Assembly: GCA_965248195.1 (NCBI GenBank)
Contig: CBDFIQ010000001.1
Span: 64,001 to 128,000 of the forward strand
Reading direction: 5' to 3'
Source of the DNA: Longimicrobiales bacterium
Lineage (GTDB): Bacteria > Gemmatimonadota > Gemmatimonadetes > Longimicrobiales > Gaopeijiaceae
DNA: 64,000 bases
Below the pieces are notes generated by a model. The model was not told the origin of the DNA. It did no database searches and saw only the letters and a program-made list of their open reading frames with translations. Below are positions 32,106 through 44,482 of the stretch, piece by piece; within the stretch, counting starts at the first letter, position 1; the number at the start of each line of letters is the position of its first letter. A program made the position numbers and the translations under genes.

Positions 32106-32198
32106 ACTTAACGTTCAGAGGTTGCCGGCGCGGCGCCTCCGGCGCCGTGCTCTCCGGAGCGAACATAGTGAGCGTAGGCGGCAACCTACTTGTTATGA
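32106..32198 (-). other. attC-like site 2
   Basis: ACTTAAC...GTTATGA; stem AGGTTGCCG/CGGCAACCT; near-identical to site 3. Confidence 0.85.
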
Positions 32199-33022: not shown

Positions 33023-33115
33023 GCATAACGTTCAGAGGTTGCCGGCGCGGCGCCTCTGGCGCCGTGTCCTCCGGAGCGAACGTAGTGAGCGCAGGCGGCA
33101 ACCGCACTGTTATCG
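33023..33115 (-). other. attC-like site 3
   Basis: GCATAAC...GTTATCG; stem GGTTGCCG/CGGCAACC. Confidence 0.85.
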
Positions 33116-33148
33116 GACGGCGCTACCTTATCGCCAATCGCACCGGTC

Positions 33149-33229
33149 TTTAAACGAACTCGGCTGCTCTCCGCGGGCGCAGCACGCGACCCTCACGTTA
33201 TACGCGACAGTAGCAATCGCTTGTTATGC
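33149..33229 (-). other. degenerate attC-like site 4
   Basis: TTTAAAC...GTTATGC; its inner end GTTATGCGGCG is the exact complement of CGCCGCATAAC at 34152-34162. Confidence 0.6.
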
Positions 33230-33233
33230 GGCG

Positions 33234-34028: not shown

Positions 34029-34192
34029 GCGCTTTCTCCAATCGCGGGCCCAGGGCGAGTCCATTCTTAACGGTATGGAGCCCTTCTGTGAGGAACAAGC
34101 GTGATTACCGAAGAACCAACGACAATCTGCCGAAGATGCACACCTGCCGACCGCCGCATAACTACTGATTCTACCACACCCCACTCGTTCTC

Positions 34193-35568
34193 GGTCAAGT
34201 CCCGATTTGTGTGTAAAAGCGGAGGAAGCTCCTCGCCTTCGGCTAGGCTGCTTGGGCGACCTCCTGTTTCTGGAGGAGTGAGAGGTCGAGGTAACGCCGG
34301 TCGCCCCAGACGTGTGTGGTCCTGAGTGCGACGGCCGTGATGAGCCTGAGGGCGCTGGCCCGGTCCGGGAAGGCGCCGGCGGCCTTGATCCTGCGTTTGA
34401 TCTCGCCGTGCAGCCGCTCGAGGCTGTTGGTGGTACGCAGCCGGGGCCAGTGCGCCTCGGGGAACGCGTAGAACTGCGTCGCTGCCCCGAAGCCCCGCTC
34501 CAGGACCTCCACGGCCTCGGGCAGCTCCTTCTTCCAGCGTGCGCCGAACTCGCCCAGGAGCTTCTTCGCCTCGGCGAGTCCGGATGTCTGGAAGATCACC
34601 GAGACCTCACGCGCCACGCGCTTGCGTAGGCGGTGGGGGACCCTCGCCCCCACATTACGCTGCAGATGGACCGTACACCTCTGACGGCGTGCCTCGGGCA
34701 GGAAGCGGCGGACCGCAGCTGCCAGGCCTGCGTGCTCATCGGCGATCACGAGCTCGACACCGCCGAGGCCGCGGTCCTGGAGTTGCTCGAGGAGCTCCGA
34801 CCAGCTCTGCTGCGACTCCTCAGCGCCCAGCGTGACGGCCAGGAGCCGTCGGTGACCCTCAGGGCCCACTGCATACGCCACGAGCGCACTCACGTTCTCG
34901 ACTTTGCGGGCCCAGCGGGCGTCCAAGAACGTGGCGTCCAGGTACAGATAGGGGTGAGGCCCCTCGATCGGCGCACGGCGCAGCCCTTCCACGGCCTCGT
35001 CGAGCCGTTTTGCCACACGACTCACCGTCGAGCGCCCAACACGCTCGCCCATCAGCGCCTCGGTGACGTCGCCCATCTTGCGCTGTGACACGCCGCTCAC
35101 ATACGCCTCGACCATCATCTCGTCGAGCTCGGGGCTCCTGCGCTGGTAGCGGCCGATCACGTCGGCCGGCGAACCGTTGTCCCGGCTCCGGGGCATGGCG
35201 ACCTCGATCTGCCCCAGGCTCGTCAGCAGCCGCCTCAGGTATGTGCCGTTCCTATGGTCCTTCCGGCTTCCCACCCGCTCGAAGCGGCGTGCACCTACCA
35301 TGGCCTTCAGCTCCTCTTCCAGCACCATCTCGAGCGTCAGCCGGATCGCGCCTTGAAACAGCTCGCGCAAATCATCGCGTAGCTCGTCTTGCGTGGCCCG
35401 ACCGATCTCCACAATCTCTTGCATCGGAAGCTCCTCTCCGGTTCCGAGCCTGCTCTGCAGACCCGGACTCCCGGGTTCATGTGACAGTGAACAACAACAG
35501 AGGAGCTTCCGTTTTTCTTTCCCTCCTGTCCAGCTTATCCGCTTTTACACAAATCTAGGGACACTACC
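34193..35568 (-). mobile_element. IS256-family insertion sequence, copy 1 (1376 bp)
   Basis: imperfect ~31-bp terminal IRs (GGTCAAGTCCCGATTTGTGTGTAAAAGCGGA / GGTAGTGTCCCTAGATTTGTGTAAAAGCGGA); 9-bp TSD CTCGTTCTC at 34184-34192 and 35569-35577. Confidence 0.95.
34243..35424 (-). CDS. IS256 family DDE transposase
   Basis: RNGTYLRRL, GVSQRK, YLYLDA, IADEH.GL, QRCTVH, TTNSLER. Confidence 0.95.
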   Translation of the reverse strand: MQEIVEIGRATQDELRDDLRELFQGAIRLTLEMVLEEELKAMVGARRFERVGSRKDHRNGTYLRRLLTSLGQIEVAMPRSRDNGSPADVIGRYQRRSPELDEMMVEAYVSGVSQRKMGDVTEALMGERVGRSTVSRVAKRLDEAVEGLRRAPIEGPHPYLYLDATFLDARWARKVENVSALVAYAVGPEGHRRLLAVTLGAEESQQSWSELLEQLQDRGLGGVELVIADEHAGLAAAVRRFLPEARRQRCTVHLQRNVGARVPHRLRKRVAREVSVIFQTSGLAEAKKLLGEFGARWKKELPEAVEVLERGFGAATQFYAFPEAHWPRLRTTNSLERLHGEIKRRIKAAGAFPDRASALRLITAVALRTTHVWGDRRYLDLSLLQKQEVAQAA

Positions 35569-35585
35569 CTCGTTCTCGCGCTGTC

Positions 35586-35739
35586 GTCTAACGTTCTAGA
35601 GTTCCGAACCGGCGCGTCCGCATGCGCACCGGTTCAGCTCTCTTCACTGACTTCCTGCACTGCTTCCTGGCTCACCACCGTTCGCGCCGGTTTCTCCGGA
35701 GCGGCCACAGGCCGCGTAGGCGGAACTCGTTTGTTAGGC
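35586..35739 (-). other. attC-like site 5
   Basis: GTCTAAC...GTTAGGC; stem GAGTTCCG/CGGAACTC. Confidence 0.85.
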
Positions 35740-35773
35740 GCTGCGCGCTCCAGGTCACCAGACCAAGCCTCAT

Positions 35774-36265
35774 TCACGACCCTTTTGGATCAAGGACCCG
35801 ATAGGGCACCCCAATCCACGCGCCGGTTGAATCGGTCCGGAGAAAGAACCGAACCTCGCATTCCCGCTCGAAGAGTCTGAAGAGGGGGATCCCTTCGAAT
35901 TCCCAACTGACCCTTACGACATCCGACTGCCCAGCGTCTAGCACGAAGGGCCCATAGGCCTCGGCCCCGGTCGAGAAGGTCCTCGCAGTGAAGACCTCAG
36001 TCCCCGCCGCGAGAGCGATTGAGTCAATCGCCACTGGGACGAGCGTTGGGTTTTCGAACCGGATCCGAACAGAGGCCCATTCGTTGCCGACTAGTCCACC
36101 AATTCGTCCGGTTTCCGCGACGATTAGACCAACCCTCCCAACCCATGTGGCAGAATCAGTTTGGGTCCATTCGGCTGGTGCGATGTCGATCCCTGGATCA
36201 CAGGCAAGGAGAGCGAGGATCATCCCGCTACACCCGATTCGACAGACTCGCCACCACCGCATCAT
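35774..36265 (-). CDS. cassette: hypothetical lipoprotein
   Basis: LALLAC lipobox-like; ends GTTAGGCGCT/AGCGCCTAAC perfectly complementary. Confidence 0.7.
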   Translation of the reverse strand: MMRWWRVCRIGCSGMILALLACDPGIDIAPAEWTQTDSATWVGRVGLIVAETGRIGGLVGNEWASVRIRFENPTLVPVAIDSIALAAGTEVFTARTFSTGAEAYGPFVLDAGQSDVVRVSWEFEGIPLFRLFERECEVRFFLRTDSTGAWIGVPYRVLDPKGS

Positions 36266-36296
36266 CCCCTGAAATTCTCCTTAGGTATTGAGTAGC

Positions 36297-36455
36297 GCCT
36301 AACGTTTCAGGACTCCGAACTGGCCCCGTCCAAAACGATTCCAGCCTCAGCTCTCTGCGAAGCAACACCTTCGTTCCCCGACCCCATTCTGCCCATGGGC
36401 CAGTTGGGTCGAAGGCCGCCGTCAGGCGGCCGAAGCCGGAGTCCGATTGTTATAT
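36297..36455 (-). other. attC-like site 6
   Basis: GCCTAAC...GTTATAT; stem GGACTCCG/CGGAGTCC. Confidence 0.85.
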
Positions 36456-36528
36456 GCCGTCGCTTCCAAGGGAGGTAGTCAGGCCAACCTACACGACCTT
36501 GCGAGTATGCGTCTCAGTCTTTGGGCTG

Positions 36529-37104
36529 CTACCACACCTTCCACCAAGGCCGTGACCTCCTCGGAGCAAGGTCGGCGAAGACCCTCGGGGCGGCCTTCAA
36601 GGGGCCCACTGGATCCTCGTCGTGCTTGAAGCCAGTGATCTCCTTCGCCGCGAGCAACGGCAAGTCGAACACGAAATCGACCTCGGCTCGACCTGCGTCC
36701 TCCTTCTTCTGCTCCTCGAATATGCCTTGGCGCAGTTCGTCAAAGCCCTCCGGCAGCTCCCCTCTCAGCTCGAGCTCGTACTTCCCCTTCTGGGCGTCAT
36801 GCGCCAGCCGCCAAACTTCGCTCCCGCCTTTCCAGTACGCGGCCGAGCTATACATGACGTGCTCCTCCACTGCGCAGGCGACACAGCTATACCGCTGAGA
36901 AAGGGACCTGAGGAACTCCGGGTCGACCAGACGATGGTCGCATCGCTGACCAACGAGCACGAACCATCCCCCTTCCAGGGCACAGCCTGAGATGGAGGCT
37001 TCGAAGTAGGGATCGGGCTCTGCACTCGGCTCGATACGTGCCTCTTGGAACAGCGCGGACGGATCCTCTGTCTCCACTGCAAGCCATGCGATGGCGTAGC
37101 CCAC
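36529..37104 (-). CDS. cassette: hypothetical protein ending in PWWKVW
   Basis: ORF between att sites with GGAGG RBS. Confidence 0.8.
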   Translation of the reverse strand: MGYAIAWLAVETEDPSALFQEARIEPSAEPDPYFEASISGCALEGGWFVLVGQRCDHRLVDPEFLRSLSQRYSCVACAVEEHVMYSSAAYWKGGSEVWRLAHDAQKGKYELELRGELPEGFDELRQGIFEEQKKEDAGRAEVDFVFDLPLLAAKEITGFKHDEDPVGPLKAAPRVFADLAPRRSRPWWKVW

Positions 37105-37175
37105 TATTCGGCCTCCCTGTTCAACTGCACGGGTCTAGTCATGGATCGCGTAGCCAAGCGCAGCCTGGCGATGGC

Positions 37176-37269
37176 GCATAACGTTCAAAGTTGCCGTCGC
37201 GGCTCGCGAACGCGAGCCGTGATCGTCGTAGTGAGCGCAGCGAACGAAGCCGGCAACTGTTTGTTAGCC
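37176..37269 (-). other. attC-like site 7
   Basis: GCATAAC...GTTAGCC; stem AGTTGCCG/CGGCAACT. Confidence 0.88.
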
Positions 37270-38563
37270 GGCGTCCGTAGCATCAAGACGACTCAGCAGT
37301 GCCACAACCTCCTCGGCAGTCGGCATCGGAGCGGATAGGACCTCGTCGATGACCACGCTTAGGTCCTGCCTGATCTCTTGCAGTAGTTCGTCGGCAAGGA
37401 GCACAGCAGTGGCTGAGAAGGACCGCCCGGCGTCCTCGAATTCGAGCCAGACGGGGTCCGTCACAAACGACCGTTGTTGAGGGATCTTGGTGAATCTGAC
37501 GTCTACGATCCAAGCACATCCGCGACGCAACGACGGGCGACACGGCTTCCCCCGCGATCCGCGTTCCGTAGGGCAGAATCCGCCGGAGCGACCCGTGCAA
37601 CGCCGTTCCCCTCGCCCGCAGTGGGTCGCCTGGAGGAGCAGGGGGCTTCGGTGGCCCATTCACGGTGGCCAGCGTGTGTACCTGCACACCAACCGGAAAG
37701 CTCACTCGAAGTGACACGTCACTAGCCGGCGCCGTCCCGTCGTTCCGCACCCTGAACCGCAGCGGTTGCAGGTGCACCGTGCTCTGGAGGTATTGATTCA
37801 GCGAATTCAGCCACGTGCCGACCGCTGCGAGATAGGTCGAGATTCTACGCTCCTCATCTCGCGCCTCCGGTGGAATGAGCGCAGGATCGAAGTTTTTGAA
37901 GCGCTTTGAGGGGTCGGGGTACTTGGCCTCTATAGAAGTCGCCACACCACGAATCAGAGAATCAGGGAAGCGGAGCGCCTGTCGCGGCCACTCGATTTCG
38001 AGTATCGGGCCCTCACCGAAATCCACGTGCAGGTCAGGGCGACGTGCCCTCTCCTTTTCAAGTTCGGCCTTTAGGCGCCTGATCTCATGGACCTGGGGGT
38101 CCTGCGATGCCGGTAGTGAGTAGCGAGACGGCATGTCCCACGCACGGATACCGACAAGCCCTGCGGCTATCCTGGGCGTAACATCATGAGTTACCAACCC
38201 CACCGCATGAGCTGACTCCTGCAGACGCAACCCGATCGCCACGAGGCGATGATCCGGGTTGGAGCGACTCAGGTTAAGCGCCTCGAAGTCCGCCTGAGGC
38301 TGCAGCGAGCAGAATTCTAGGAGCGTCCCATCGGACAGCTTGATCGGCGACCCTGACGACTGGATCTTCTCGATCAGCCCCAGGATCCGCCGAGCCCGGT
38401 CGCGGCGTCGCGCGTTCGGGTGGGCATCCTTGAGCTCGTCCAGCTCCTCGAGGTTGACCCAGGTCATCCTCACCGCTTCCACCTGACAACCTGCGACCTC
38501 CGCCCAGTCTGCGCCCTCGAAGTCGAAGTGCAGCAGGACGTTGGTATCGACGATGATATTCAT
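37264..38563 (-). pseudogene. cassette: PIN-domain protein with probable frameshift near the 3' end
   Basis: IIVDTNVLLH...EELDELK...NPDHRL...LVTHD PIN motifs; a plausible C-terminus in another frame stops at the TAA within the att core (37264). Confidence 0.7.
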
Positions 38564-38616
38564 ACCAACTCTCACTCCTCAATCACCCGTCTCCACCTCC
38601 TCACAGTGCGGATGCC

Positions 38617-38709
38617 GGCTAACGTTCCAGGGTGCCGACGCGGCTCGCAACGCGAGCCGTGTTCTCCGGAGCGAACGCAGTGAGCGCAGGCGGCACCCGT
38701 GTGTTAACT
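38617..38709 (-). other. attC-like site 8
   Basis: GGCTAAC...GTTAACT; stem GGGTGCCG/CGGCACCC. Confidence 0.88.
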
Positions 38710-38719
38710 GACGTGCGGC

Positions 38720-39541
38720 CTATCCCCCTGCGCCTATTCTGGACACCGTGTCGGCGGAGTCCGCCATGGCTCTCAACTTGGCCGGGAAGCCAGTTCCGCA
38801 GATCTGCTCCAGAGGATAAGGGGACTCCTGGGGTTTCTGAAACAAGGAGTCCATTTCTGCCGCCTTGCGTCGGTACACGTCGGCTCGAACTCTGTATCTT
38901 CCAGGGGGTGCCACTTCACTCAAGGACTCGCCAACTACCCGGAAGTACCTGGGCCAGTACGCTTCTTCGCCACAAATCGATGGAACGGCGCCTCCGCACT
39001 CGATCAGTGGGTATGCTCCGCCCTCGAATGTCTCGATGACATACTGACCGTCCTCTCGACGTAGGTTCCCGGCAATGCATTCGTCGAACGGGATTAAGAG
39101 CAACTCGGGCCCTTCATTGGTGGAGAGCACCGCCGCGGTGGCATTGGTCTCTTCGTAGCCCAACGACCAAAAGAGGTCTGTTCGACCATCCCCATTCAGG
39201 TCGGCGAGAGCGACCTCCGGCCTCCCTCCGTAGAGGTCTCCCGACCGCCAATATTCGTCGGTTCCAATAGCCCAAAGCACTTGGTGGTCATACACACCGA
39301 TCGGATCGAGGAACACGCTGTCCACACCCGTTGCGGAAATGAGCACTCGTTCGCGGCCCTGTTGAACGGACTGGGTAACGGGCGAATCTGCAACCAGATC
39401 TGCCGATCCCGCCTCAGTGGATCTTGCGGCTGAAGAGTTCTCCCCCCTTTGCGACTCCGGTCCGCACGCAACGAAACCCAACCCCGTCGCGGCTATCAGA
39501 AATGGCGTCAGCTTCAAAGACCTAATCCTCGTCGAAAGCAT
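38720..39541 (-). CDS. cassette: hypothetical lipoprotein with an FG-GAP-like DLNGDGRTDL motif
   Basis: FVAC lipobox; ends GTTAACTGAC/GTCAGTTAAC perfectly complementary. Confidence 0.75.
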   Translation of the reverse strand: MLSTRIRSLKLTPFLIAATGLGFVACGPESQRGENSSAARSTEAGSADLVADSPVTQSVQQGRERVLISATGVDSVFLDPIGVYDHQVLWAIGTDEYWRSGDLYGGRPEVALADLNGDGRTDLFWSLGYEETNATAAVLSTNEGPELLLIPFDECIAGNLRREDGQYVIETFEGGAYPLIECGGAVPSICGEEAYWPRYFRVVGESLSEVAPPGRYRVRADVYRRKAAEMDSLFQKPQESPYPLEQICGTGFPAKLRAMADSADTVSRIGAGG

Positions 39542-39544
39542 GTC

Positions 39545-39631
39545 AGTTAACGAATAAGGATTGTTTCCGAACTCTACGGAAGAGCGGGCAGGAAGGCGAG
39601 GTAGTGCGAGTGCGGAAAGGATCCGTTGAAC
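39545..39631 (-). other. att-like site at the 3' end of the recombinase/transposase module
   Basis: AGTTAAC...GTTGAAC; GGATTGTTTCCGAACTC pairs with GAGTGCGGAAAGGATCC (14/17). Confidence 0.7.
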
Positions 39632-39648
39632 GAAGCCGCTACGTGGTG

Positions 39649-41024
39649 GGTAGTGTCCCTAGATTTGTGTAAAAGCGGATAAGCTGGACAGGAGGGAAAG
39701 AAAAACGGAAGCTCCTCTGTTGTTGTTCACTGTCACATGAACCCGGGAGTCCGGGTCTGCAGAGCAGGCTCGGAACCGGAGAGGAGCTTCCGATGCAAGA
39801 GATTGTGGAGATCGGTCGGGCCACGCAAGACGAGCTACGCGATGATTTGCGCGAGCTGTTTCAAGGCGCGATCCGGCTGACGCTCGAGATGGTGCTGGAA
39901 GAGGAGCTGAAGGCCATGGTAGGTGCACGCCGCTTCGAGCGGGTGGGAAGCCGGAAGGACCATAGGAACGGCACATACCTGAGGCGGCTGCTGACGAGCC
40001 TGGGGCAGATCGAGGTCGCCATGCCCCGGAGCCGGGACAACGGTTCGCCGGCCGACGTGATCGGCCGCTACCAGCGCAGGAGCCCCGAGCTCGACGAGAT
40101 GATGGTCGAGGCGTATGTGAGCGGCGTGTCACAGCGCAAGATGGGCGACGTCACCGAGGCGCTGATGGGCGAGCGTGTTGGGCGCTCGACGGTGAGTCGT
40201 GTGGCAAAACGGCTCGACGAGGCCGTGGAAGGGCTGCGCCGTGCGCCGATCGAGGGGCCTCACCCCTATCTGTACCTGGACGCCACGTTCTTGGACGCCC
40301 GCTGGGCCCGCAAAGTCGAGAACGTGAGTGCGCTCGTGGCGTATGCAGTGGGCCCTGAGGGTCACCGACGGCTCCTGGCCGTCACGCTGGGCGCTGAGGA
40401 GTCGCAGCAGAGCTGGTCGGAGCTCCTCGAGCAACTCCAGGACCGCGGCCTCGGCGGTGTCGAGCTCGTGATCGCCGATGAGCACGCAGGCCTGGCAGCT
40501 GCGGTCCGCCGCTTCCTGCCCGAGGCACGCCGTCAGAGGTGTACGGTCCATCTGCAGCGTAATGTGGGGGCGAGGGTCCCCCACCGCCTACGCAAGCGCG
40601 TGGCGCGTGAGGTCTCGGTGATCTTCCAGACATCCGGACTCGCCGAGGCGAAGAAGCTCCTGGGCGAGTTCGGCGCACGCTGGAAGAAGGAGCTGCCCGA
40701 GGCCGTGGAGGTCCTGGAGCGGGGCTTCGGGGCAGCGACGCAGTTCTACGCGTTCCCCGAGGCGCACTGGCCCCGGCTGCGTACCACCAACAGCCTCGAG
40801 CGGCTGCACGGCGAGATCAAACGCAGGATCAAGGCCGCCGGCGCCTTCCCGGACCGGGCCAGCGCCCTCAGGCTCATCACGGCCGTCGCACTCAGGACCA
40901 CACACGTCTGGGGCGACCGGCGTTACCTCGACCTCTCACTCCTCCAGAAACAGGAGGTCGCCCAAGCAGCCTAGCCGAAGGCGAGGAGCTTCCTCCGCTT
41001 TTACACACAAATCGGGACTTGACC
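39649..41024 (+). mobile_element. IS256-family insertion sequence, copy 2 (1376 bp)
   Basis: same ends and identical transposase protein as copy 1, in opposite orientation; flanks ACGTGGTG/ACGTGGGG (7/8 TSD). Confidence 0.95.
39793..40974 (+). CDS. IS256 family DDE transposase
   Basis: protein identical to 34243-35424. Confidence 0.95.
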   Translation: MQEIVEIGRATQDELRDDLRELFQGAIRLTLEMVLEEELKAMVGARRFERVGSRKDHRNGTYLRRLLTSLGQIEVAMPRSRDNGSPADVIGRYQRRSPELDEMMVEAYVSGVSQRKMGDVTEALMGERVGRSTVSRVAKRLDEAVEGLRRAPIEGPHPYLYLDATFLDARWARKVENVSALVAYAVGPEGHRRLLAVTLGAEESQQSWSELLEQLQDRGLGGVELVIADEHAGLAAAVRRFLPEARRQRCTVHLQRNVGARVPHRLRKRVAREVSVIFQTSGLAEAKKLLGEFGARWKKELPEAVEVLERGFGAATQFYAFPEAHWPRLRTTNSLERLHGEIKRRIKAAGAFPDRASALRLITAVALRTTHVWGDRRYLDLSLLQKQEVAQAA

Positions 41025-41214
41025 ACGTGGGGCTATGGAGATTGGAAGGCCGTCGAACTGGCTCCGGATGGCCTGAGGCACGCGAGATGGTGGACGGAGC
41101 CACCGAAGAGAGTGGGGATCGGGCTCCGACACGACCATGTGGGAAGTGATGAAGGGGCTGTGGCCGACGTAGGCACAGTCGGGTCCATCGCCGCCGTTGA
41201 GGAACAGCCACGTA

Positions 41215-42423
41215 TCAGGATGCGACACGGTGGACCCATGGGTTCGGAGGAGGAGGTCGCCCGAGGACCTGCACACACTGTAGCACGCCCTTTCTACAGC
41301 TGGGACAGACGTGCAGATCACGAGGCCGTAGATCGAGGAGGATCTCATCGCCATCGAGGGACTCTGGTTGCGGATCGAGGGAGACTGCTGGCTGCCCGAG
41401 TGCCTCGCGAGAGCATGCGAGCAGTCGAGCGCGGCTGGCGTTGGCGAAGATCCCGTAGTAGCGGATACGCACGAAGCCCTTCGGTAAGACGTGTAGCAGG
41501 AAGCGACGGGCGAACTCGTGGAGGGGAAGCATGAGAGTCCGGGCCCTGCGACCTCGGTAGTCCTTGTAGCGGAAGCACACAGACTGGTCGTCTACGTGGA
41601 GCAGACGATGGTTCGAGATCGCGACTCGGTGGGTATAGCGAGCCAGGTACTCGAGAACGGGCTTCGGACCGTCGAAGGGGGGTTTGGCATAGACGACCCA
41701 CTCAGTCTGGCGAGCCGCGTTGAGGTGGCGCGCGAACGCCGCGCGTGAGCGGTAGCGGGCGAGGGCACCGTGCAACTCGAGGCTCCCGTCCCGAAACGCA
41801 TCCCAGAGTCCTGCGGTGAACTTTCCCCGGAACAAACGACTGAGCACGCGCACCGGCAGGAAGAAGCCCGGCCGACAAGGACGCCATGTACGGTCACCTT
41901 CCGCCAGGCCGCCCGCTGGGACAACGCAGTGTACGTGCGGATGATGGACCAGCGTCTGGCCCCAAGTATGCAGGACGGCGAAGAACCCGATCCGTGCGCC
42001 GAGATGCTTCGGGTTCAGGGCGACATCCTGCAGCGTCCGCCCCACGGTACGAAGCAGGAGACCGTAGAAAACGCGTGGGTTCTGCAGCGCCAACGGTGCC
42101 AGGCTCTGCGGCACAGTGAAGACGACGTGCGCGTAGGGCACAGGTAACACCTCGGCCTGGCGTGCCTCGAGCCAGTCCGCTTGGGCACTACCCTGGCACT
42201 TTGGACAGTGACGGTTGCGGCACGAGTTGTACGAGATCCTCCGGTGACCGCAGGCGTCGCAGGCGTCGATGTGACCACCCAGCCGTGCGGTTCGGCAGGC
42301 GGTGATCGCCTCGACGACCGCACGTTGCTCCCAACTCCATCTCGCCCCGGATCCCAGCGAGCGCGGCGCTTCGCGGTACTCTTGGAAGACCTCGGCAAGC
42401 TCGTGCCGGGGTCGCTTGGTCAC
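41215..42423 (-). CDS. IS91 family (HUH/Y2) transposase
   Basis: Zn-binding CxxC...SCRNRHCPKCQ; HVVFTVP; LHTWG..HPHVH (HUH); YLARY (Y2); IRYYG. Confidence 0.93.
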   Translation of the reverse strand: MTKRPRHELAEVFQEYREAPRSLGSGARWSWEQRAVVEAITACRTARLGGHIDACDACGHRRISYNSCRNRHCPKCQGSAQADWLEARQAEVLPVPYAHVVFTVPQSLAPLALQNPRVFYGLLLRTVGRTLQDVALNPKHLGARIGFFAVLHTWGQTLVHHPHVHCVVPAGGLAEGDRTWRPCRPGFFLPVRVLSRLFRGKFTAGLWDAFRDGSLELHGALARYRSRAAFARHLNAARQTEWVVYAKPPFDGPKPVLEYLARYTHRVAISNHRLLHVDDQSVCFRYKDYRGRRARTLMLPLHEFARRFLLHVLPKGFVRIRYYGIFANASRARLLACSREALGQPAVSLDPQPESLDGDEILLDLRPRDLHVCPSCRKGVLQCVQVLGRPPPPNPWVHRVAS

Positions 42424-43278
42424 CTACTCCGTTGGCTCGAACTCCGAGCTCAAGGCATCCAGAGGACTCTTAATCGAACGGAGCCGTGCCGTGGCCACGT
42501 GCGTGTAGATCGCCGTGGTCTGGAGCGCCCGGTGACCGAGCAGCGTTTGGATCATCCGCAGATCCGTGCCCGACTCCAGCAGGTGCGTCGCGTAGCTGTG
42601 ACGGAGCGTACGGGGTGTCACCCGCTTCGTGATCCCCGCTCGCGCACCGGCCGCCCCGATCACTCGTTGTACCGTCCGGCTCGTGAGCGGCTGGTCCGGA
42701 GCGCGTCCGTAGAACAGCAAGCTCCTTGGCCTGTACATACGCCAATATGCCCGCAGCGTCGCCAGCAACACGCCCGACAGGACCACCTGCCGGTCCTTGT
42801 CCCCCTTGCCGTGGCGCACGGTGATCACCATCCGGTCACTATCGATGTCGCGCACTTGCAGCCCCAGCACCTCGCTGGTCCTCAGCCCGCCACCGTACAG
42901 CGTCATTGCCATCGCCCGGTGCTTCAGGTTCCCTACCCCCTTGAGCAGACGTCCGACCTCCTCCGGGCTTAGCACCACCGGGTTGCGTCTCTTCTGTCGC
43001 GGGTAGGGGAGGTGGGGCAACAGCTCCGGCCGGTCCAGCGTCACACGGTACAGGAACCGCATTGCCCCCACCGCCTGCTTGAACGCCGAACGCGATACGT
43101 CCCGCTCCTCCTTCAGGTACCGCAGGTATCCGCGTATCTCTTCGCGGCCCAGCGTGTCCGGAGATCGCCCGAAGTGCTGCGCCATCTCGGCGACACGTCT
43201 GATGTAGATCGCCTGCGTGCGCTCTGCGTAGTTCCGGACCCTCAGATCCGTCAGCATCTTCTGCCGTAGCTCGCTCAT
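42424..43278 (-). CDS. tyrosine recombinase (IntI-like N-terminal SAM domain, no IntI-specific insertion)
   Basis: LYGGGLR, GKGDKDR, RTLRHSYATHLLE, LLGH, TAIYTHV; GAGGAG RBS before ATG 43278. Confidence 0.92.
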   Translation of the reverse strand: MSELRQKMLTDLRVRNYAERTQAIYIRRVAEMAQHFGRSPDTLGREEIRGYLRYLKEERDVSRSAFKQAVGAMRFLYRVTLDRPELLPHLPYPRQKRRNPVVLSPEEVGRLLKGVGNLKHRAMAMTLYGGGLRTSEVLGLQVRDIDSDRMVITVRHGKGDKDRQVVLSGVLLATLRAYWRMYRPRSLLFYGRAPDQPLTSRTVQRVIGAAGARAGITKRVTPRTLRHSYATHLLESGTDLRMIQTLLGHRALQTTAIYTHVATARLRSIKSPLDALSSEFEPTE

Positions 43279-43407
43279 CGGTCCCTCCTCGACTGGGTTG
43301 CGTTGGGGCACGCAACCTACTCGCCCAGTCCTCGGAACCTCGGCCCTACTCAGACACCGGAATCACCACCCACCGCGAGCCCTCACCACCCACCGCGTAG
43401 CGGTTTA

Positions 43408-43527
43408 GTTCAACGATTTCTTCCCGAACCATATCAGATTACCCGCCGACTCGCGATGCCATCACGACGGATGTCGCCTATGCTCGGCCAAGCCGGAACG
43501 TGTCGCCCTCCGGCCCAAACGTTATGG
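43408..43527 (-). other. poorly paired or hybrid att-like interval
   Basis: GTTCAAC and GTTATGG cores present but no long-range stem; GTTATGGGCCATCAC matches the far end of the HigBA cassette at 13/15. Confidence 0.5.
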
Positions 43528-43543
43528 GCCATCACGCCTCAAA

Positions 43544-43870
43544 CTAGGCCGGGGACTTCGCACCGCGTCCGCCAGGGTACCGTGGGATCTTCTTGAGGAC
43601 CTCGGCTTCTGACTTCCGCGCGTGGTAGAGGTCCCAAGCGAGTTGGAGATTGAGCCAGAAATCAGAGGAAGTTCCGAAATACTGAGATAGGCGAAGCGCA
43701 GTACTTGGGGTAACTCCGCGACGTCCATTAACGATCTCGTTCACACGCTGGTAGGGAACGGCGATCGCATCTGCCAGCTGCCTCTGGGTGATCCCCATCG
43801 GTGCTAGGAACTCCTCCAGGAGCATCACTCCGGGATGCGTCGGGAGGCGATGAGTGGGCACACGAACCAT
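43544..43870 (-). CDS. higA: cassette: HigA/VapI family antitoxin
   Basis: PTHPGVMLLEEFL..GITQRQLA..VNEIVNGRRGVT..ALRL..FWLNLQ. Confidence 0.92.
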   Translation of the reverse strand: MVRVPTHRLPTHPGVMLLEEFLAPMGITQRQLADAIAVPYQRVNEIVNGRRGVTPSTALRLSQYFGTSSDFWLNLQLAWDLYHARKSEAEVLKKIPRYPGGRGAKSPA

Positions 43871-43878
43871 AAGAAGCC

Positions 43879-44172
43879 TCAGTGGTAATCGACGACCTGT
43901 ACGTCCTCTGGGCCGTTCGGCGTCCATCGGAAACAGATCCGGTATTGATCGTTGATTCGAATGCTATGCTCCCCTTTGCGGTCACCCTTCAGGGCCTCGA
44001 GTCGGTTTCCTGGAGGGATCCGGAGATCCTCAAGAATAGCGGCGGCAGCAAGCGCATCTAGCTTTTTCCCACCCTGCCTCCAGAGGGACTGAGGAAGCGT
44101 CCTTCGGGCCAGTTTCGTGGGGCGCCCATAGAAGAGATCCTCTGTCGCTTCGTCCTTGAAGCTTCGAATCAT
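43879..44172 (-). CDS. higB: cassette: HigB (RelE/ParE superfamily) toxin
   Basis: MIRSFKD...DLRIPPGNRLEALKGDRKGEHSIRINDQYRICF..DYH. Confidence 0.92.
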   Translation of the reverse strand: MIRSFKDEATEDLFYGRPTKLARRTLPQSLWRQGGKKLDALAAAAILEDLRIPPGNRLEALKGDRKGEHSIRINDQYRICFRWTPNGPEDVQVVDYH

Positions 44173-44173
44173 A

Positions 44174-44200
44174 TAGCATGATAGCCGGGATATCGTGCTA
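44174..44200. promoter_or_regulatory. putative HigA operator palindrome
   Basis: TAGCATGATA-N7-TATCGTGCTA (9/10) immediately upstream of the toxin ATG. Confidence 0.6.
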
Positions 44201-44235
44201 ACACAAGAAGAACCAATTACCTGTTCGGTGATGTC

Positions 44236-44290
44236 CGATAACGGTCCAGGCGCTCCCGACGTGGAGCGAAGCGTAGGTCCGCGGAGCGGC
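44236..44290 (-). other. truncated attC-like half-site marking the array end
   Basis: ATAACGGTCCAGGCGCTCCCGACG (44238-44261) is identical to 31045-31068 of site 1; partner arm not found. Confidence 0.65.
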
Positions 44291-44482
44291 CAGGCCCTCG
44301 TTGGGGTCAACGGCGGCGCGAAGTGAGCCGTCCTTGGCGCGGCAACCAACGACCGCGACAAAGTCACGGACCCTAAACCCATAACGGCTCCAGCCACGGC
44401 GGACCGAAGCGTTGGGACCAGTCTTCAGGTTCTCCAGCCGTTCGCACGTGATCCAAGTCGCGCACGGGTGGCGACTCTGACA

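Follow-up and report, generated by a model that had tools for sequence, protein, structure and literature searches.

Two IS256-family insertion sequences at a common distance from attC cores in an apparently degenerate integron cassette array

The cassette array and its insertion sequences

The window, i.e. the whole stretch of 64,000 nucleotides that was analysed, carries between positions 32106 and 39631 a series of seven sites with the build of integron attC sites, the top strand of which is the minus strand in all cases, as it is for the intervening ORFs (Table 1). Each site is an imperfect palindrome of the order R''-L''...L'-R' with RYYYAAC and GTTRRRY ends and a length of 55-160 nt, and in 7/7 sites the spacer on the R' side exceeds the one on the R'' side. 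The best match to an integron integrase (TIGR02249) in the genome, located 1 Mb away, is N-terminally truncated, scores 238.7 bits with respect to a cut-off of 265, covers only model positions 120-307 and is interrupted by a copy of the same IS256-family element as found in the window. The host of the insertions appears to be a chromosomal integron cassette array which is now degenerate.

Strict regular expressions and fold-based attC finders (genome scans by duplex energy, stem and local alignment) were dropped, with real matches not above those in a reversed-genome control (e.g. 35 vs 31; 156 vs 199), and replaced by profile searches. The covariance model R1 was self-built from 11 class-A sites of two genomes, including a5 and a6, and is distinct from the model of IntegronFinder; site a3, which was left out of its construction, matches with 33.4 bits (E 2e-8). 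A MAFFT alignment of the seven window sites placed the long sites wrongly and was left out of model building. Sites a7 (E 3.1), a4 (Table 1) and a8 (E 2.2) are without support from R1, and architecture is the sole ground for terming a7 attC-like. The next cassette ORF has its ATG 3 nt after R' of a7, and a7 is kept at 87% in a second genomic copy. Adjacent to copy 2 of the insertion sequence resides a Y2-transposase unit, whose start is the R'-like GTTGAAC (43414-43408) belonging to the preceding site a8 and whose end, beyond copy 2, is a7, with boundaries shared with the second genomic copy; the a7 core doubles as the tip of the terminal repeat of this unit.

Table 1. Features of the window at and between the two insertion sequences (positions of the window; IRL and IRR, the two terminal inverted repeats)
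Feature	Position	Strand	Remarks
Full feature range	34184-41032		outermost duplication to outermost duplication
IS256-family copy 1	34193-35568	minus	1,376 bp; IRR at 34193, IRL at 35568; inverted-repeat pair
Transposase ORF, copy 1	34243-35424	minus	393 aa, Mutator/IS256 type; Pfam PF00872
Target-site duplication copy 1, IRR side	34184-34192		CTCGTTCTC, 9 bp; repeated perfectly at 35569-35577
Spacer, copy 1 IRL to attC core	35569-35585		17 nt, the first 9 of which form the second duplication copy
Core beside copy 1	35586-35592		GTCTAAC, directly after the 17-nt spacer; complement of R' GTTAGAC of a3
attC site a3	35586-35739	minus	154 nt; R'' GCCTAAC at high end, R' GTTAGAC at 35592-35586; architecture, fold, covariance model
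Four-cassette stretch between IS copies	35774-39541	minus	a4, a5 and a6 separate the ORFs
Cassette ORF 1	35774-36265	minus	ORF list
attC site a4	36297-36455	minus	covariance model R1 E 0.67, not significant
Cassette ORF 2	36529-37104	minus	ORF list
attC site a5	37176-37269	minus	R1 E 1e-28 to 1e-30 (range for a5 and a6; both were in the model)
Cassette ORF 3	37283-38575	minus	PIN_4 (Pfam)
attC site a6	38617-38709	minus	R1 E as for a5 (same range; also in the model)
Cassette ORF 4	38720-39541	minus	FG-GAP (Pfam)
attC-like site a7	39545-39631	minus	87 nt; R'' GTTCAAC at 39631-39625, R' GTTAACT at 39551-39545; architecture
Core beside copy 2	39625-39631		GTTGAAC on plus, GTTCAAC on minus; R'' of a7
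Spacer, a7 core to copy 2 IRL	39632-39648		17 nt; last 8 nt (39641-39648, ACGTGGTG) are the left duplication copy
Duplication copy 2, left	39641-39648		ACGTGGTG, 8 bp
IS256-family copy 2	39649-41024	plus	1,376 bp; IRL at 39649
Transposase ORF, copy 2	39793-40974	plus	protein identical to that of copy 1
Duplication copy 2, right	41025-41032		ACGTGGGG; 7/8 match to left copy
Y2 unit	41033-43414	minus	IS91-type Y2 transposase 41215-42423, tyrosine recombinase 42424-43311; Pfam PF04986, PF14319, PF00589

Two insertion sequences, mutually identical in pairwise comparison, interrupt this region. Their terminal inverted repeats are imperfect, with 25-nt arms that are 84% complementary in both copies; at its tip, IRR reads TTGACC, which resembles a -35 hexamer and points outwards. 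The transposase, the sole ORF of the element, matches Pfam PF00872 (E 5.5e-100, 362/379 model positions covered) and not PF01548/PF02371 of the DEDD transposases of the IS110 family, and resembles the ISCth4 TnpA structure PDB 6xg8 (E 1.8e-42 for the protein of copy 2, which is that of copy 1 as well). As judged from sequence, both elements are copies of an IS256-family insertion sequence that has apparently expanded recently and has a predicted Mutator-superfamily DDE transposase.

A common spacing at two attC cores and a third case

As the first-pass annotation had noticed and as direct reading and a pattern search bear out, the same, transposase-proximal end (IRL) of both copies lies outside an attC core, at a distance of exactly 17 nt; the window contains two matches to the 21-nt IRL end, one on the minus strand (35548-35568) and one on the plus strand (39649-39669), with 0 expected. 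The sides of the attC differ, as copy 1 is located downstream of R' and copy 2 upstream of R'', two positions related through the two-fold symmetry of the palindrome. At copy 2, the 17-nt spacer falls within the ~30-bp terminal inverted repeat of the adjoining Y2-transposase unit.

The independence of the two insertions, which had been proposed from the unrelated flanks and duplications, holds up. An empty paralogous target of copy 2 is present, uninterrupted, at G000:C1:215730-216229, and copy 2 is therefore a simple insertion; since each copy in addition possesses its own duplication, two separate transposition events have taken place. A composite transposon built from two inverted copies is ruled out, with a separate duplication at each copy and none shared by the outer flanks. 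Both copies thus appear as ordinary independent cut-and-duplicate insertions, with 8-9-bp duplications, into a cassette array.

A third case stems from another genome. The flanks of related elements from other genomes comprised 67 unique IRL flanks and 13 more, together ~80 independent flanks, and in one of these a class-A attC ends exactly 17 nt from IRL (L132, G201:C3:151959). This site is supported by nhmmer (E 3e-25/2e-25), with IRL 17 nt from its R'', and the integron integrase of genome G201 is intact (368 bits). The insertion sequence, 1,416 bp in length and 76.6% identical to the one in the window, is flanked by its own 8-bp duplication GCCGACCG. This case was sought prospectively, after the geometry had been fixed, and its chance occurrence is roughly estimated at about 0.001-0.02.

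One of the three cases is on the R' side (copy 1) and two are on the R'' side (copy 2 and G201), with IRL proximal in all, a both-sided pattern that fits two-fold symmetry. The joint at IRL is constant at +17, and with duplications of 9, 8 and 8 bp the gap to the near joint is 8, 9 and 9; a floating near joint combined with a constant IRL joint is what is expected if it is one end of the transpososome to which the distance is gauged. The 17-nt spacers agree at 3/17 positions only, and a comparison of the attC regions with the IS ends revealed no consistent similarity over the three sites. An extra stem outside the R box was seen by eye at a3 (5 bp) and at the G201 site (6 bp), and none at a7; folding the empty sites globally, as reconstructed, added no information.

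Distribution of the element and alternative explanations

The genome contains 103 full-length copies of the element with at least 99% identity, of which 25 are flanked by exact 8-bp and 32 by exact 9-bp duplications, one shows only a 4-bp match and 45 show none, several of the latter pairing with the flank of another copy, i.e. being rearranged. Genome-wide mapping found no att core 17 nt from IRL in 101/103 copies, such that the geometry is displayed by about 2% (2/103). For 16 copies there is a mapped attC within 2 kb, in 14 of them at other distances, which range from 35 to 1815 nt, and the 57 sites that have intact duplications yielded no target consensus when their composition was compared position by position. 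In consequence, the element does not target attC in the sense of the IS1111-attC elements or the group IIC-attC introns; it is not attC-specific and inserts almost anywhere. Among ~45 class-B attC matches in the genome none has the IS at +17, with the nearest IRL at 39 nt from an R', which argues against a generic attC-structure cue. The second in-array copy in G201 is located ~540 nt from an attC.

With these numbers, orientation-specific targeting of att sites, as put forward in the first-pass annotation, survives in part. Random placement of the other copies with respect to att-like sites, named there as the observation to speak against it, is largely what is seen, and the IS is no attC-targeting element overall. 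On the other hand, placement at a fixed distance and in one orientation has gained the independent case of G201.

Coincidence, in which an IS that inserts at random and builds up in dispensable DNA, cassette arrays included, happens to lie at 17 nt three times, is a serious rival and quite conceivable, since there are only three cases, one of which in the window concerns an att site recognized by architecture only. It is in line with the abundance of the element (103 copies), with the absence of a target consensus and with the scatter of the ~16 copies in the vicinity of an attC. For the two copies of the window alone, the chance that any two of the ~10-16 in-array copies share distance and facing end is about 0.03-0.1 by rough estimate, which is not compelling by itself, and the pattern was picked post hoc, from reading many windows. 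Enrichments of k-mers of like size occur also at unrelated flank positions. Furthermore, no additional case came from the 13 extra flanks or from wider searches: three full-length relatives examined in a search of 200 genomes of the order are not at attC, the pattern of GTT, 21 nt and IRL matched 6 loci (5 unique) in a metagenome collection, none at attC, and only this genome among 400 genomes of the phylum, and viral contigs gave 0 matches. However, the third case emerged in another genome and with another IS once the geometry was fixed, where only ~3 of the ~80 flanks are near any attC, a scarcity that underlies the low rough chance given above. Coincidence has also to account for the facing end common to all three cases and for a far joint that is constant despite the varying duplication length. 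If the hot spot fails, the finding reduces to a highly active IS that has made two unexceptional insertions in an integron undergoing decay.

A sequence preference might produce the same picture, if the transposase weakly favoured GTT 24-22 nt before the IRL joint and attC cores supplied this trinucleotide, with neither structure nor protein involved. Counted outwards from IRL, positions 21-23 are indeed occupied by AAC in 10/170 flanks vs 2.0 expected, and upon omission of the three attC cases in 7/167 vs 1.98 expected (binomial P 0.004). But the tail is noisy, as comparable 'enrichments' arise at arbitrary positions (GTA at 41, GGC at 27), and the position-wise composition of the 57 intact sites has no signal there. 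Moreover, a ~3-fold trinucleotide bias is insufficient for three matches to attC cores, with GTT occurring every few tens of bases, which makes this explanation improbable.

Still less credit is given to selection in place of targeting, whereby only insertions in the short non-coding gaps beside attC survive, or are favoured through a hybrid promoter or through the IS riding a mobile cassette. All three insertions have left attC and the neighbouring ORFs intact, as selection would have it, and the outward-facing -35-like hexamer of IRR might contribute to a promoter. Selection cannot, however, yield single-nucleotide precision, other in-array copies reside inside cassettes, and it is IRL, not the IRR with the -35-like hexamer, that faces attC. 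A consensus scan, conducted with an E. coli-type consensus that may not fit the host, found no sigma-70-type promoter at 35540-35780 or 39480-39700, and prediction gave none for the two IRL junctions or for the junction formed by IRR of copy 1. A hybrid promoter composed by eye at the latter junction (TTGACC, 19 nt, TAGAAT) was not called by the promoter scan either.

A possible hot spot beside attC sites and its relation to known systems

We lean, by a modest degree, towards a low-frequency, orientation-specific insertion hot spot just outside attC sites, an assessment that takes into account the three cases, the attC-like assignment of a7 by architecture only and the imperfect (7/8) duplication of copy 2. 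At such a hot spot, the strand-transfer joint of IRL would come to lie 17 nt past the outer edge of the 7-bp core and the joint of IRR at +8 or +9, with IRL facing attC. As the geometry occurs on the R' and on the R'' side, the cue is probably a two-fold symmetric feature of attC, which may be a cruciform or hairpin formed when the imperfect palindrome is extruded, or else a protein bound to both inverted cores. The 17-nt spacer itself is probably not what is read, since the spacers are unrelated among the cases. The recurrence would then reflect target choice by the transpososome with DNA structure as the presumable cue, and the asymmetry of the terminal repeats would set the orientation, in analogy to what has been proposed for promoter-targeting relatives. 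More tentatively, an IS256-family transposase might measure off a fixed 17 bp, starting at the base of an attC palindrome that is folded or bound by protein, and insert there in one orientation and on either flank, leaving the site intact and making the IS a passenger of a mobile cassette.

In most respects the element conforms to the IS256 family, with a single 393-aa PF00872 transposase, imperfect inverted repeats, 8-9-bp duplications, mostly random insertion and a size of 1.38 kb (1,376 bp in a family range of about 1.3-1.5 kb). What sets it apart is the recurrent insertion geometry beside attC sites. A literature search, in sources available in part, retrieved no published report of attC targeting by IS256 elements.

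Mobile elements that occupy integron attC sites in a constant orientation are otherwise represented by the IS1111-attC group of the IS110 family and by group IIC-attC introns. These employ a DEDD transposase or, alternatively, a reverse transcriptase together with a ribozyme, and are described as inserting inside attC in a strand-specific manner with essentially every copy. In contrast, the present DDE element is found 17 nt outside attC, on either side, with a normal duplication and with only ~2% of its copies. The same genome also harbours an IS110-family element inserted at one identical position inside class-B attC sites.

With respect to insertion in one orientation and at a set distance to a DNA feature, the closest likeness is to promoter-targeting Mutator-like elements of the same superfamily (TnGBS/ISLre2/ISKra4 group). 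According to the available part of the account, TnGBS and elements of the ISLre2 type keep a fixed distance of 15-17 bp to sigma-A promoters and a single orientation, which is ascribed to the dissymmetry of the two terminal repeats (PMC3942029). A signature motif between domains N1 and N2 is described for the transposases of this group (PMC3942029). As far as described there, the feature recognized by this group is the -35 box, with insertion upstream of it and IRr proximal, and nearly all copies are targeted, whereas here it is the attC core with IRL proximal and a small minority of copies. The transposase of the window is of the IS256 type (p-MULT 1), for which the same partially available source reports random insertion without positional enrichment relative to promoters and no promoter habit (PMC3942029).

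IS256-type elements are regarded as random inserters, and a hot spot would show that this branch of the Mutator superfamily, too, can read a DNA feature at a fixed distance, like its promoter-targeting relatives. If measurement from the attC palindrome holds true, the IS256 family would have its first case of a target choice measured from structure, and mobile elements a third, mechanistically distinct route to integrons, after the IS1111-attC elements and the group IIC-attC introns. The insertion sequence would thereby enter an integron cassette without destroying the recombination site, such that the cassette would retain its mobility and take the IS with it.

Placement of the two insertions within the cassette array

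Both copies of the IS256-type element lie in an array of integron cassettes that reads along the minus strand, in which seven attC-type or attC-like sites (a1 to a7) are separated by ORFs that are without exception on the minus strand and contain few Pfam domains (PIN_4, FG-GAP). On that strand the sites read xxxTAAC, 5-6 nt, a stem of 6-8 bp, a loop, the complementary stem, 7-12 nt and GTTAxxx, the usual R''-L''...L'-R' order, with R'' and R' the 7-nt core boxes at the attC ends. A covariance model of 11 class-A sites (four of the window and seven of G201, another genome with a related IS; a3, a4, a7 and a8 excluded), mostly sequence-driven with an effective number of sequences of 1.37, scores a3 at 33.4 bits (E 2e-8); a4 (E 0.67), a7 (E 3.1) and the further attC-like site a8 (E 2.2) receive no significant score. 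By architecture and context only, a7 is attC-like: it is 87 nt long, has a stem of 4+6 bp and an arm asymmetry as in the neighbouring sites, and 3 nt separate its R' from the start codon (ATG) of the following cassette ORF.

Features of the window and att-inserted elements of its genome (G000)
Feature	Coordinates	Strand and ORF	Evidence
attC-type imperfect palindrome a1	32106-32198	minus as read	
attC-type imperfect palindrome a2 (class A)	33023-33115	minus as read	
IS copy 1 (1,376 bp)	34193-35568	minus; transposase ORF 34243-35424 minus	ORF, ends, duplication
attC-type imperfect palindrome a3	35586-35739	minus as read	
attC-type imperfect palindrome a4	36297-36455	minus as read	
attC-type imperfect palindrome a5	37176-37269	minus as read	
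attC-type imperfect palindrome a6	38617-38709	minus as read	
attC-like palindrome a7	39545-39631	minus as read	
IS copy 2 (1,376 bp)	39649-41024	plus; transposase ORF 39793-40974 plus	ORF, ends, duplication
2.4-kb unit, IS91-type Y2 transposase and tyrosine recombinase	41033-43414 plus 39625-39648		~30-bp inverted repeats at its bounds
IS110-family element in class-B attC	G000:C1:45648-47218, 469810-471381, 494695-496265, 497250-498818, and ~six split sites		

Two further cassettes were observed. A degenerate class-B attC-like site at 33146-33232 (3' half nhmmer E 1e-12) is located ~30 nt from a2, so that one 'cassette' is hardly more than an attC, and at the upstream array end a HigB-like toxin/HTH antitoxin pair (43544-44397, minus strand) followed by a8 (43408-43527) constitutes a toxin-antitoxin cassette.

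The two IS copies are, on direct comparison, identical in sequence and mutually inverted. Their 393-aa transposase belongs to Transposase_mut (PF00872, E 5.5e-100) and matches the structure of the ISCth4 transposase (6xg8, E 1.8e-42), and the ends are imperfect inverted repeats with arms of 25 nt and 84% complementarity, of which the transposase-proximal IRL begins GGTAGTGTCCC and the opposite IRR closes with GGGACTTGACC. A perfect 9-bp duplication, CTCGTTCTC (34184-34192 and 35569-35577), borders copy 1, and copy 2 lies between ACGTGGTG (39641-39648) and ACGTGGGG (41025-41032), identical at 7/8 positions. The distance of 17 nt between the same end of both copies and an att core, noted in the first-pass annotation, is exact. 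The spacer of copy 1 (35569-35585) precedes GTCTAAC, which puts the insertion 17 nt downstream of the a3 R' (GTTAGAC), right at the start of the next cassette, while the spacer of copy 2 (39632-39648) directly follows GTTGAAC, 17 nt upstream of the a7 R'' (GTTCAAC). IRL faces the attC in both, and the insertion positions, on opposite attC flanks, correspond to each other under the palindrome's two-fold symmetry.

At the IRR tip of copy 1 (34150-34200, minus strand) an outward-pointing TTGACC is followed 19 nt beyond by TAGAAT, itself ~10 nt ahead of the probable ATG (within GTTATGCGG) of a 289-aa cassette ORF, a possible IS-borne hybrid promoter. A consensus scan permitting spacers of 16-18 nt made no call at this 19-nt arrangement and predicted no sigma-70-type promoter at the IRL junction of either copy.

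The R'' core of a7 doubles as the tip of a ~30-bp inverted repeat, GTTGAAC-NAANCCGCTACGYGGTGGGTGG, of the Y2 transposase/tyrosine recombinase unit, the repeat tips of which are the attC core sequences GTTGAAC/GTTCAAC. In a second copy of this unit (G000:C1:215730-219397 and 1062757-1062983) the target of IS copy 2 is unbroken (...GTTGAACGAAGCCGCTACGCGGTGGGTGGGGCTATGG...), which proves copy 2 to be a simple insertion into contiguous DNA. Judged by its boundaries the unit looks cassette-like, as it starts with G/TTGAAC at the R' of the preceding a8 and ends with the a7 hairpin, which has an R'' exactly complementary to GTTGAAC; against a cassette nature, the homology of both unit copies extends 13 nt beyond the expected crossover.

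Distribution of the element in its own genome

The genome (two contigs, C1 and C2; 4.86 Mb) harbours 103 full-length copies with at least 99% identity, besides fragments (119 BLAST segments). Exact duplications flank 57 of the 103 (8 bp in 25, 9 bp in 32), a single copy shows a mere 4-bp match and 45 have none; several of the duplication-less copies match the flank of another copy (C1:873008/C1:999462, C1:219398/C1:1062983, C2:2547788/C2:2561367), indicative of recombination between IS copies, i.e. inversions or translocations. Copies nested within copies occur at C1:40936-43258, 483025-485785 and 1464529-1475225. No target consensus emerges among the 57 sites with intact duplications.

RYYYAAC is found 17 nt from IRL in two copies, both in the window, with 0.06 expected per distance bin. 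An att map from two nucleotide profiles (class A, the window type, and class B) plus five hand-placed sites comprises 51 entries, split halves counted separately, with arrays at C1:34-48 kb, 96-108 kb (that of the window), 468-506 kb and 1081-1104 kb and scattered entries on C2. Sixteen IS copies lie <2 kb from an entry, at 17, 17, 35, 75, 82, 101, 250, 551, 696, 843, 1059, 1155, 1355, 1476, 1501 and 1815 nt; on inspection, 39 nt separate IRL from an R' (GTTAGGG) in the 35-nt case, the neighbour in the 82-nt case is a truncated att site and the 101-nt case is an IS within another IS. None is positioned with its IRL joint 17 nt outside the core at the ~45 class-B sites. With 2/103 copies at this distance and the other near-att copies scattered, the proposal that the element seeks out attC is not borne out, and its roughly six-fold enrichment in arrays, a rough estimate, is expected of dispensable DNA. 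The chance that two of 10-16 in-array copies agree in distance and facing end is ~0.03-0.1 by rough estimate; the two window copies alone are unimpressive evidence, all the more as they were picked post hoc.

Recurrence in a second genome

Scanning one genome per species for conserved IRL blocks yielded at least 69 loci with 67 unique flanks. Among the matches listed, L132 (G201:C3:151959) reads ...CAGCAACCGCATT GTTATCT GTCGGCCGTGCCGACCG / GGTAGTGTC..., with a strong class-A attC (nhmmer E 3e-25 / 2e-25) whose R'' (AGATAAC, top strand) lines up with the other sites of alignment A2 (window sites and G201:C3:136000-175999), a spacer of exactly 17 nt and IRL toward the attC. This IS of 1,416 bp has 76.6% identity to the window IS over 1,239 nt, its own 8-bp duplication GCCGACCG and unrelated flanks, and thus represents an independent event by another member of the group. 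It resides in a 37-kb array with >20 class-A sites, where a second IS copy is ~540 nt from the nearest site. The class-A attC family, with a mean column identity of 79% in alignment A2, is common to both genomes, so that both hosts have the same integron type, although the mutual identity of their IS256-type elements is only 77%.

Copy 1, on the R' side of its attC, combines a 9-bp duplication with a gap of 8 nt between core and duplication, and copy 2 and the G201 insertion, both on the R'' side, an 8-bp duplication with a gap of 9 nt, so that the IRL-side joint is constant at 17 nt and the IRR-side joint floats. The three spacers agree at just three positions, and no resemblance to IS ends is common to the three sites. 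AAC at the matching position is somewhat over-represented in the non-att flanks as well (7/167 versus 2.0 expected, P 0.004), but little is made of this, since equally strong 'signals' arise at arbitrary flank positions.

Four high-copy genomes contributed thirteen more flanks, none of them such a case, three full-length relatives from an order-level search do not lie at att sites, and the pattern GTT-21 nt-IRL was found at six metagenome loci (five unique, none at attC), in G000 alone among 400 genomes of the phylum and in zero viral contigs. The geometry thus occurs in 1 of ~80 unbiased foreign flanks, with only ~3 near any att site among the matches listed, one of them (L072) ~95 nt from a class-B site. 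A hot spot beside attC has against it n=3, the post hoc discovery, the imperfect duplication of copy 2, the weak case for a7 as an attC, the lack of additional cases in directed scans and the zero cases at ~45 class-B sites, where a purely structural cue predicts them. That three insertions came to lie 17 nt from a core by coincidence is a rather doubtful but serious explanation; the independent G201 match, with a chance of ~0.001-0.02 by rough estimate, speaks against it. Of the fixed-distance, oriented placement proposed at first pass, general attC targeting is not supported, and a low-frequency hot spot at a measured distance has the support of one independent recurrence.

A candidate hot spot and its relation to known systems

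On balance we lean slightly towards a group of elements that inserts near-randomly yet has a minor hot spot, oriented and adjacent to attC, the distance being measured to the IRL joint. As both flanks are used, the cue would be symmetric about the palindrome, and could be the base of an extruded cruciform or hairpin or a protein on two inverted cores. The integron integrase may guide insertion; it is intact in G201. In G000 its sole recognisable gene (G000:C1:1112711-1113266, minus; TIGR02249, 238.7 bits, model positions 120-307) is a fragment without the N-terminal third, broken at ...THVLN by the IS256-type copy C1:1111335-1112710, with unrelated sequence in frame upstream and then a stop codon. 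The other half of that IS duplication (tcctgaacc) is at the copy C1:1107576-1108951, so that a rearrangement must have taken place at this locus.

IS1111-attC elements and group IIC-attC introns insert inside attC in a strand-specific manner, whereas the proposed hot spot lies outside attC and on both flanks. G000 also carries an IS110-family DEDD element (~1.46 kb; 345-aa transposase, PF01548 E 3e-16, PF02371 E 2.5e-15) that interrupts class-B attC sites at a single constant position, GCGATTCT^GCTGCGCG (four junctions sequence-checked, ~ten inferred from split profile matches), and looks like a high-copy member of the IS1111-attC kind.

Among the papers listed by a full-text literature search none concerns IS256 targeting of attC, co-mentions of the terms being unrelated where checked. 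According to one survey, TnGBS and ISLre2-type elements of the same superfamily insert 15-17 bp from sigma-A promoters in an oriented manner attributed to terminal-repeat dissymmetry, and IS256-type insertions are random (PMC3942029); the former are a precedent in this superfamily for fixed-distance, oriented insertion. The proposed hot spot, if true, would be a variation on known target-site behaviour. If the hot spot is real, the attC is left intact and the IS, as part of the cassette, could travel with it.
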